NCBI GenBank assembly: GCA_000004695.1
Contig: CM000155.2
Span: 2,752,001-2,816,000 of the forward strand
Length of the DNA stretch: 64,000 nucleotides
Direction of reading: 5' to 3'
Source of the DNA: Dictyostelium discoideum
Taxonomy: Eukaryota
Shown: positions 15,504 through 16,477 of the stretch, in pieces
How positions within the stretch are numbered: the first letter of the stretch is position 1
Layout of the letters: each line of letters opens with the position of its first letter
The notes under the pieces: model-generated
The model's database searches: none
Told to the model about the DNA's origin: nothing
Seen by the model: only the letters and a program-made list of their open reading frames with translations
Made by a program: the position numbers and the translations under genes

Positions 15504-16354
15504 TATGAAAAATGAAATAATCAAATAAAAAAAGTGTTGTTGTTGATGTTTTTTCTCTTACTGATTATTTTTTCCTTTTTTTTTCAATTTTGCTTCGCAA
15601 AATTTTCAAAAAAAAGAAAAAAATAAATTACAATAAAATAAAGAAATAAAGAAGTTTACTCTAAGTGTATTTTATTTTATTTTTTTTAAGTCTTTTTTTT
15701 ATATGAAAAATGAAATAATCAAATAAAAAAAGTGTTGTTGTTGATGTTTTTTCTCTTACTGATTATTTTTTCCTTTTTTTTTCAATTTTGCTTCGCAAAA
15801 TTTTCAAAAAAAAGAAAAAAATAAATTACAATAAAATAAAGAAATAAAGAAGTTTACTCTAAGTGTATTTTATTTTATTTTTTTTAAGTCTTTTTTTTAT
15901 ATGAAAAATGAAATAATCAAATAAAAAAAGTGTTGTTGTTGATGTTTTTTCTCTTACTGATTATTTTTTCCTTTTTTTTTCAATTTTGCTTCGCAAAATT
16001 TTCAAAAAAAAGAAAAAAATAAATTACAATAAAATAAAGAAATAAAGAAGTTTACTCTAAGTGTATTTTATTTTATTTTTTTTAAGTCTTTTTTTTATAT
16101 GAAAAATGAAATAATCAAATAAAAAAAGTGTTGTTGTTGATGTTTTTTCTCTTACTGATTATTTTTTCCTTTTTTTTTCAATTTTGCTTCGCAAAATTTT
16201 CAAAAAAAAGAAAAAAATAAATTACAATAAAATAAAGAAATAAAGAAGTTTACTCTAAGTGTATTTTATTTTATTTTTTTTAAGTCTTTTTTTTATATGA
16301 AAAATGAAATAATCAAATAAAAAAAGTGTTGTTGTTGATGTTTTTTCTCTTACT
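15504..16354. repeat. tandem array of 198-bp units (about 4.3 copies, left end truncated by gap); candidate TRE5 (DRE) A-module repeats
   Basis: Landmark 'gtgttgt' recurs at 15534, 15732, 15930, 16128, 16326 (period exactly 198). The array diverges at 16355, 49 nt before tRNA-Val. Confidence 0.8.
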
Positions 16355-16403
16355 CAGCTTAAATTTCTGATCCTTTCAAACAAGCAAAATTGAAAATTTT
16401 AAA

Positions 16404-16477
16404 GGTCGGATGGTGTAGTCGGTTATCACGGTTGCTTTACACGCAACAGGTCTCGAGTTCGATCCTCGGTCGGATCA
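16404..16477 (+). tRNA. tRNA-Val (anticodon UAC)
   Basis: Cloverleaf with anticodon arm GGTTGC-TTTACAC-GCAAC, T-arm TCGAG-TTCGATC-CTCGG, acceptor GGTCGGA/TCGGATC (one mismatch). Closely parallels yeast tRNA-Val(UAC). T-run terminator follows. Confidence 0.8.

Follow-up and report, generated by a model that had tools for sequence, protein, structure and literature searches.

A tandem array of 198-bp modules upstream of a tRNA-Val gene in Dictyostelium discoideum is probably the 5' head of a TRE5-B retrotransposon

The window analyzed here is a stretch of 64,000 nt of the Dictyostelium discoideum genome (assembly GCA_000004695.1, contig CM000155.2, positions 2,752,001 to 2,816,000 of the forward strand) with a G+C content of 24.5%; the proteins it encodes show 99% identity to those of D. 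discoideum. Tandem Repeats Finder reported a sole array at positions 15504-16354, with a period of 198 bp, 4.3 copies, 100% matches, no indels and a score of 1702. A direct comparison at a lag of 198 across these 851 bp yielded zero mismatches and set the exact end of the array at 16354. ARAGORN placed a tRNA-Val gene with the anticodon TAC (UAC) on the plus strand 49 nt beyond this end (Table 1), and the Rfam tRNA model supported it with E = 7e-11. Thus, the original prediction that at least 4.3 perfect 198-bp copies end 49 nt before tRNA-Val is confirmed by Tandem Repeats Finder, the lag comparison and ARAGORN. A 29-nt piece of the unit occurs five times in the window, always inside the array, while shuffled sequences give an expectation of zero. 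The array is interrupted by an assembly gap, which had been described as 90 N at 15414-15503 and is corrected here to 100 N at 15404-15503; since the contig breaks within the array, 4.3 copies is a lower bound. The tRNA-Val gene was absent from an Rfam scan of positions 15000-21500 at the gathering threshold, and a scan of a small region (window 16300-16600) recovered it at 53 bits; its absence from the wide scan is a loss at the speed filter and no evidence against the gene.

Table 1. Features of the array locus in the window, followed by the longest arrays among related full-length copies. L003, L004, L005 and L012 are loci carrying full-length copies and L010 is the orthologous locus, all in assembly GCA_054883475.1.
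Feature	Sequence	Position	Strand	Basis
Assembly gap, 100 N, which would cover the remainder of the element	window	15404..15503	.	
Initial 59 nt of a further module, which is a fifth full one or the 91-nt partial one at the array terminus; cut by the gap	window	15504..15562	-	
Module 4, same sequence as module 1	window	15563..15760	-	Zero lag-198 mismatches
Module 3, same sequence as module 1	window	15761..15958	-	Zero lag-198 mismatches
Module 2, same sequence as module 1	window	15959..16156	-	Zero lag-198 mismatches
Module 1, tRNA-proximal, nucleotides 1-198 of the retrotransposon, starts AGTAAGAGAAAAAACATC	window	16157..16354	-	100% identity over 198 nt, in the same register, to the first modules in L003 and L004
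49-nt spacer, tRNA-side flank of the target site	window	16355..16403	.	Comparison with the empty site in L010
tRNA-Val(UAC) gene, integration landmark	window	16404..16477	+	ARAGORN; Rfam tRNA model, 53 bits
Putative TRE5-B head, 9 modules, all identical	L012	2029-3898		
Putative TRE5-B head, 5 modules, all identical	L004	8814-9894		
Putative TRE5-B head, 5 modules, all identical; 199-bp variant, 97% identity to the window unit	L005	8818-9903		

Other mobile elements and tRNA genes were also observed in the window. A non-LTR insertion at 16513-17895, 35 nt downstream of tRNA-Val, lies between the two copies of a 14-nt target-site duplication (TGAAGTTTGCTATT; 16499-16512 and 17895-17908) and carries poly(A) at 17849-17892. 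An inversion affects its 5' part: ORF2 residues ~310-478 are encoded on the minus strand (16521-17012) and the ORF2 C-terminus on the plus strand (17167-17616), with 31-37% identity to TRE3-type pol proteins. The insertion resembles a TRE3-like element whose 5' end was inverted by twin priming. ARAGORN missed two identical tRNA genes with introns on the minus strand (18337-18427 and 19961-20051); each scores 52.5 bits with the Rfam tRNA model, and a published IleUAU primer fits them with one mismatch. Both have a 5'-truncated TRE5 fragment upstream: a TRE5-A C-module (94%) is found at 18565-18629 and a TRE5-C-like 3' end at ~20100-20676. On the minus strand at 25372-25441, 45-50 nt upstream of tRNA-Asp (25486-25558), a fragment of ~70 nt with an oligo(A) tail, 91% identity to the TRE5-B-type 3' end and TAGGATC on either side is what is left of a TRE5 copy after extreme 5' truncation. 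An apparently full-length TRE3-type element (25877-30182) follows downstream of tRNA-Asp, oriented like this tRNA gene, with an ORF1 of 222 aa and an ORF2 of 1147 aa (Exo_endo_phos, RVT_1), the latter sharing 99% identity with a Logan contig protein and 59% with DDB_G0269266.

Pfam scans of the ORFs flanking the array found a TRE3-type ORF2, Hsp70, enoyl-CoA hydratase and others, and no TRE5 protein among them. As the window contains no TRE5 protein, the unit was traced via relatives. The route led from the TRE3-type ORF2 of the window (26739-30182; RVT_1, Exo_endo_phos) to a 33%-identical D. discoideum ORF2 (P0008) and to the locus L001; further loci were reached from ORF1 of the L001 element (P0067, 454 aa, DDB_G0293632). 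The resulting comparison set comprises seven distinct full-length copies (L001-L006 and L012) from assembly GCA_054883475.1, which represents another D. discoideum strain.

Read on the minus strand from position 16354, the window unit is 97-100% identical, over its entire length, to the 5'-terminal modules of these seven non-LTR retrotransposons. Compared with L001 8175-8370, for example, the identity is 98.5% across all 198 nt; this module directly precedes ORF1 and ORF2, and 46 nt separate it from a tRNA-Ala gene of opposite orientation. In the matching elements ORF1 and ORF2 (RVT_1) follow directly downstream of the modules, and all seven share one structure: n modules, a partial module of 91 nt, oligo(A), a leader of ~100 nt, ORF1, ORF2 and a 3' UTR. 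ORF1 has 454 aa and, in complete copies, ORF2 has about 1144 codons (endonuclease and reverse transcriptase); the two do not overlap, being separated by a 75-nt A-rich spacer, and the 230-nt 3' UTR ends in ...CTCCTAGAACACACTCAAATTGAGTGATGTTATT(A)n. All seven copies begin at module nucleotide 1-4, and each is head to head with a tRNA gene (Ala, Gly, Arg, Asn, Phe, Asp and Arg), which it precedes by 40-50 nt on the opposite strand. The tRNA-proximal end of the window array is likewise exactly element nucleotide 1 (AGTAAGAG...), and as this is minus-strand position 16354 and the tRNA starts at plus-strand position 16404, the head-to-head rule holds here as well. The same orientation and position upstream of tRNA genes are described for TRE5 elements (PMC3159450, PMC5391098). 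The seven copies therefore support the proposal that the array is a TRE5-type head with its 5' end facing the tRNA at the canonical distance, pointing away from it, with the body in the gap. Full and partial modules are identical across their first 59 nt, so that the gap-cut end of the array fits either type.

Some of the related loci are complex. L007 contains a degenerate relative, with 79% DNA identity and without a full module, which is not TRE5-A. One and the same insertion interrupts two TRE5-B-type copies (L001 13458-14230 and L007 about 7650-8380), sitting in the 3' UTR of one and in ORF1 of the other; the 12-bp periodic motif TTTAAAGGTAAT is abundant in it, and it contains a tRNA-like piece. 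In L004 (8689-15520), a TRE5-B copy 50 nt upstream of tRNA-Asn is followed, directly behind its oligo(A) tail, by a TRE5-A head (A-module, B region, start of ORF1), which suggests nested targeting, a second hit at the same tRNA gene having pushed the older element away.

Three markers identified TRE5-A: primers published for its ORF1, four nucleotides of the C-module and the B-module copy at the 3' end. The primers Rep-190 and Rep-109Q for endogenous TRE5-A ORF1 (Table S1 of PMC5391098) match L008 and L009 exactly; in L001-L007 they have zero matches, and the best sites in the module-bearing family have 6 to 11 mismatches. The primer peptides SFSPTY and DTIIELDNL, together with ISTVIYF from the codon-adapted primer, all lie within the proteins P0080 and P0088. 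Both proteins were found by an exhaustive HMMER search with P0067 as the query, and members of the P0080 cluster led to L008 and L009; exact look-ups of the P0007 and P0080 sequences returned no contig. The element in L009 is of the TRE5-A.2 type and truncated at its 5' end; it comprises ORF1, what remains of ORF2, a B copy, a C-module and oligo(A), and has a target-site duplication. With numbering from the 3' end, it has T15, C26, A35 and C38, which are exactly the nucleotides named for C-module mutants of TRE5-A.1 (PMC3159450); the same count gave no consistent register in window 25372-25441 or at the 3' terminus of the module-bearing family. In its published structure, AB-ORF1/ORF2-BC, TRE5-A.1 has overlapping ORFs. 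The control L009 has both the B copy and the C-module at its 3' end; neither was found in the module-bearing family, the similarity of its 3' UTR to the TRE5-A C-module being limited to oligo(A). The family reached through ORF2 homology had first been assumed to be TRE5-A, and this assumption was dropped once the published primers failed to match. P0007 (DDB_G0291958, 'pol' AAD43057.1) was also tried as TRE5-A ORF2 and rejected: a member of its cluster lies downstream of a tRNA gene in L004, so that P0007 is of the TRE3 type.

The locus orthologous to the array (L010, assembly GCA_054883475.1) was reached via a 510-aa gene left of the gap. In L010, 46 nt of spacer identical to that of the window lie between tRNA-Val and 1.8 kb of unique DNA, with no module. 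The last 3 nt of the 49-nt spacer are CTG in the window and GTG in L010, while the other 46 run into the unique DNA. L010 is thus an empty site, and as the orthologous site of the other strain is empty, the insertion in the window is real and polymorphic between strains. A search of the window for the target-site duplication and the far junction did not recover the unique DNA located behind the empty site of L010, so that this DNA must lie in a gap. The comparison also revealed that window positions 16358-21432 are in the opposite orientation to both flanks relative to L010, at 98.7% identity over 5075 bp. The inverted segment corresponds to a 5.9-kb contig (15504-21434) bounded by two gaps of 100 N, where the assembly containing L010 is contiguous and has 0.84 kb and 1.8 kb of DNA that are missing from the window. 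This reflects either an orientation error in the scaffold or a true inversion between the strains; in either orientation the array meets a gap, so that the body and the 3' junction of this copy are hidden.

The array had been proposed to be the A-module head of a TRE5-A (DRE) element, with which its position, its orientation and the module length of ~200 bp agree. A genuine TRE5-A A-module is available in L004 (15138-15334), where it precedes the N-terminus of TRE5-A ORF1 (MKITNNTTNIKQ...). The window unit is clearly homologous to it, sharing the TTGCG(A/T)AGCAAAA core and the TTTGATTATTTCATTTTTCATAT block; the suggested similarity to a TRE5 A-module therefore stands, but at 76-79% identity the unit is not TRE5-A's own module and is, as judged from its sequence, a distinct one. 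In contrast, it is 100% identical to a module of the other family, whose ORF1 (P0067) has 26-29% identity to TRE5-A ORF1 (P0088) in a global alignment. As the family that matches the unit at 97-100% fails the TRE5-A criteria and fits TRE5-B, the assignment to TRE5-A, which we consider very unlikely, is refuted at the sub-family level. That the array heads a TRE5-C element is highly improbable. TRE5-C, like the module-bearing family, has no 3' B-module and inserts upstream of tRNA genes according to published work, but it ends in a C-module with 78% identity to that of TRE5-A (published value), while the module-bearing copies have an unrelated 3' end. Furthermore, a C-module of this type, 77-78% identical to that of TRE5-A, is held by the separate fragment at ~20100-20676 of the window, which represents a third family: the C-terminus of its ORF2 has 44-47% protein identity to a TRE5-A-type copy and 37% to the module-bearing family.

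Two further explanations would detach the array, or its regularity, from a mobile element. In a genome of ~24% G+C with abundant simple repeats, an ordinary AT-rich minisatellite might lie beside a tRNA gene by chance, but the same 198-bp sequence heads seven retrotransposon copies with ORF1 and ORF2 at other tRNA genes and is missing from the orthologous empty site; on these sequence comparisons such a coincidence has a negligible probability and is refuted. A pile-up of repeat reads beside the gap might have created the array, or at least its copy number and perfect identity, during assembly, but we consider such an artefact very improbable. The contig does stop within the array at a gap of 100 N, and the inversion of the entire 5.9-kb inter-gap contig relative to another assembly implies that the region is hard to assemble. 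However, the megabase-scale contigs of the other strain carry arrays of 3, 5, 5 and 9 modules, identical within each array, so that perfect multi-copy arrays are real for the module-bearing family; in addition, the junction of the window array with the unique spacer and the tRNA gene lies on a single contig.

We therefore estimate the probability at about 85% that a TRE5-B element, a non-LTR (LINE-like) retrotransposon, was inserted on the minus strand 49 nt upstream of tRNA-Val(UAC) and that the array is its 5' untranslated head. TRE5-B is described as having neither a 3' B-module nor a C-module (PMC3159450, PMC4559204), and the published identity of its ORF1 to that of TRE5-A is 25%; the module-bearing family agrees with this description in both absent modules and in the identity of its ORF1. 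There are three families in our data and three in the literature, and with TRE5-A and TRE5-C excluded the unit is assigned to TRE5-B. This name is the most likely one, given from published descriptions and by elimination. One cluster member is named 'Group-specific antigen Q9GQ50_DICDI', and this name is silent on the sub-family.

The number of full modules per locus in the seven copies is 1, 1, 1, 3, 5, 5 and 9. At least four modules, which had been expected to be unusually high, is thus ordinary for the family. Within each array the full modules are mutually identical, and between arrays they differ by up to 3%. One and the same module variant occurs in 1, 3, 5 and at least 4 copies, and another one in 1 and 9 copies; as copies with the same sequence differ in module number, this number may change at or near each retrotransposition. 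In the papers covered by the search we found no statement of 1-9 tandem modules in TRE5-B heads.

TRE5 elements are described as using target-primed reverse transcription for their insertion ~50 bp upstream of tRNA genes; in the case of TRE5-A, the RNA polymerase III transcription complex occupies the sites of insertion. The targeting is probably due to binding of TFIIIB by the ORF1 protein, and the ORF1 proteins of both TRE5-A and TRE5-B bind TFIIIB subunits in vitro. The A-module of TRE5-A is known as an RNA polymerase II promoter for plus-strand RNA.

The head in the window, with at least four identical 198-bp modules, would be the TRE5-B counterpart of the TRE5-A A-module. Everything after module 4, that is, the 91-nt partial module, oligo(A), the leader, ORF1, ORF2 and the 3' UTR, would lie in the gap. 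The ORFs of this copy are predicted from the other copies, its body being hidden; ORF1 would be expected to start with MNKLANTIMTES. At the far junction we would expect a 10-16-bp duplication of ...AGAAATTTAAGCTG, followed by GTGTGTTCGATTCGG. The modules of TRE5-B may act as tandem promoter monomers, although the one module with demonstrated promoter activity, the A-module of TRE5-A, is only 76-79% identical to them. If transcripts start at module nucleotide 1, every array would be in the same register. The number of monomers may change quickly, be it by transcription starts in inner modules, by template switching or by unequal exchange. The direct observations are the identity of the modules, their register, the position and orientation of the head, the empty site and the variable module number; arrays that start at nucleotides 1-4 and consist of identical modules in varied number fit transcription starts at module boundaries and a change in number that is faster than point mutation. 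We tentatively suggest that TRE5-B heads are fast-evolving arrays of promoter monomers, that their number changes at or near each retrotransposition and that TRE5-B has been active since the strains diverged, although this combination as a whole seems rather unlikely. Activity since the divergence of the strains is suggested by the identity within arrays and the variation in their number together with the empty orthologous site; to our knowledge, TRE5-A alone has been treated as an active family.

For annotation, the array should be labeled as a TRE5-B 5' end (A-type modules) rather than as TRE5-A or a novel repeat, and its copy number, given the adjoining assembly gap, should be taken as a minimum. 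The inversion of the contig and the insertion polymorphism are two by-products that may help curators. Beyond annotation the significance is small: this is a known element of a known kind at a known kind of site. The variation from one to nine modules with perfect identity within arrays offers a tidy and testable parallel to the monomers of mouse L1.

Compared by published description, no differences were detected between TRE5-B, a tRNA gene-targeted non-LTR element of D. discoideum, and the module-bearing family: both are found ~50 bp upstream of tRNA genes with the 5' end towards the tRNA, and both have two ORFs, no 3' B-module, no C-module and an ORF1 with ~25% identity to that of TRE5-A. 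TRE5-A (DRE) is alike in its integration site and orientation, in the ~200-bp A-module at its extreme 5' end and in the B region after the A-module, which repeats the first 85-91 nt of the latter; it differs in its AB-ORF1/ORF2-BC arrangement, overlapping ORFs, a C-module with an antisense promoter and another ORF1. Marschalek and colleagues reportedly described in 1992 that the tRNA-proximal end of DRE consists of one or several A-modules followed by one B-module. The 5' UTR of mouse L1 is a variable-length tandem array of ~200-bp promoter monomers, followed by a truncated unit and a non-repeated leader before ORF1. TRE5-B resembles it as a LINE-like element with tandem units of ~200 bp whose number likewise varies between copies. 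In contrast, the two are not related in sequence and belong to hosts of different kingdoms, L1 inserts without tRNA targeting, the monomers within an L1 array are usually not identical, and the promoter function that L1 monomers have is only presumed for the modules of TRE5-B.
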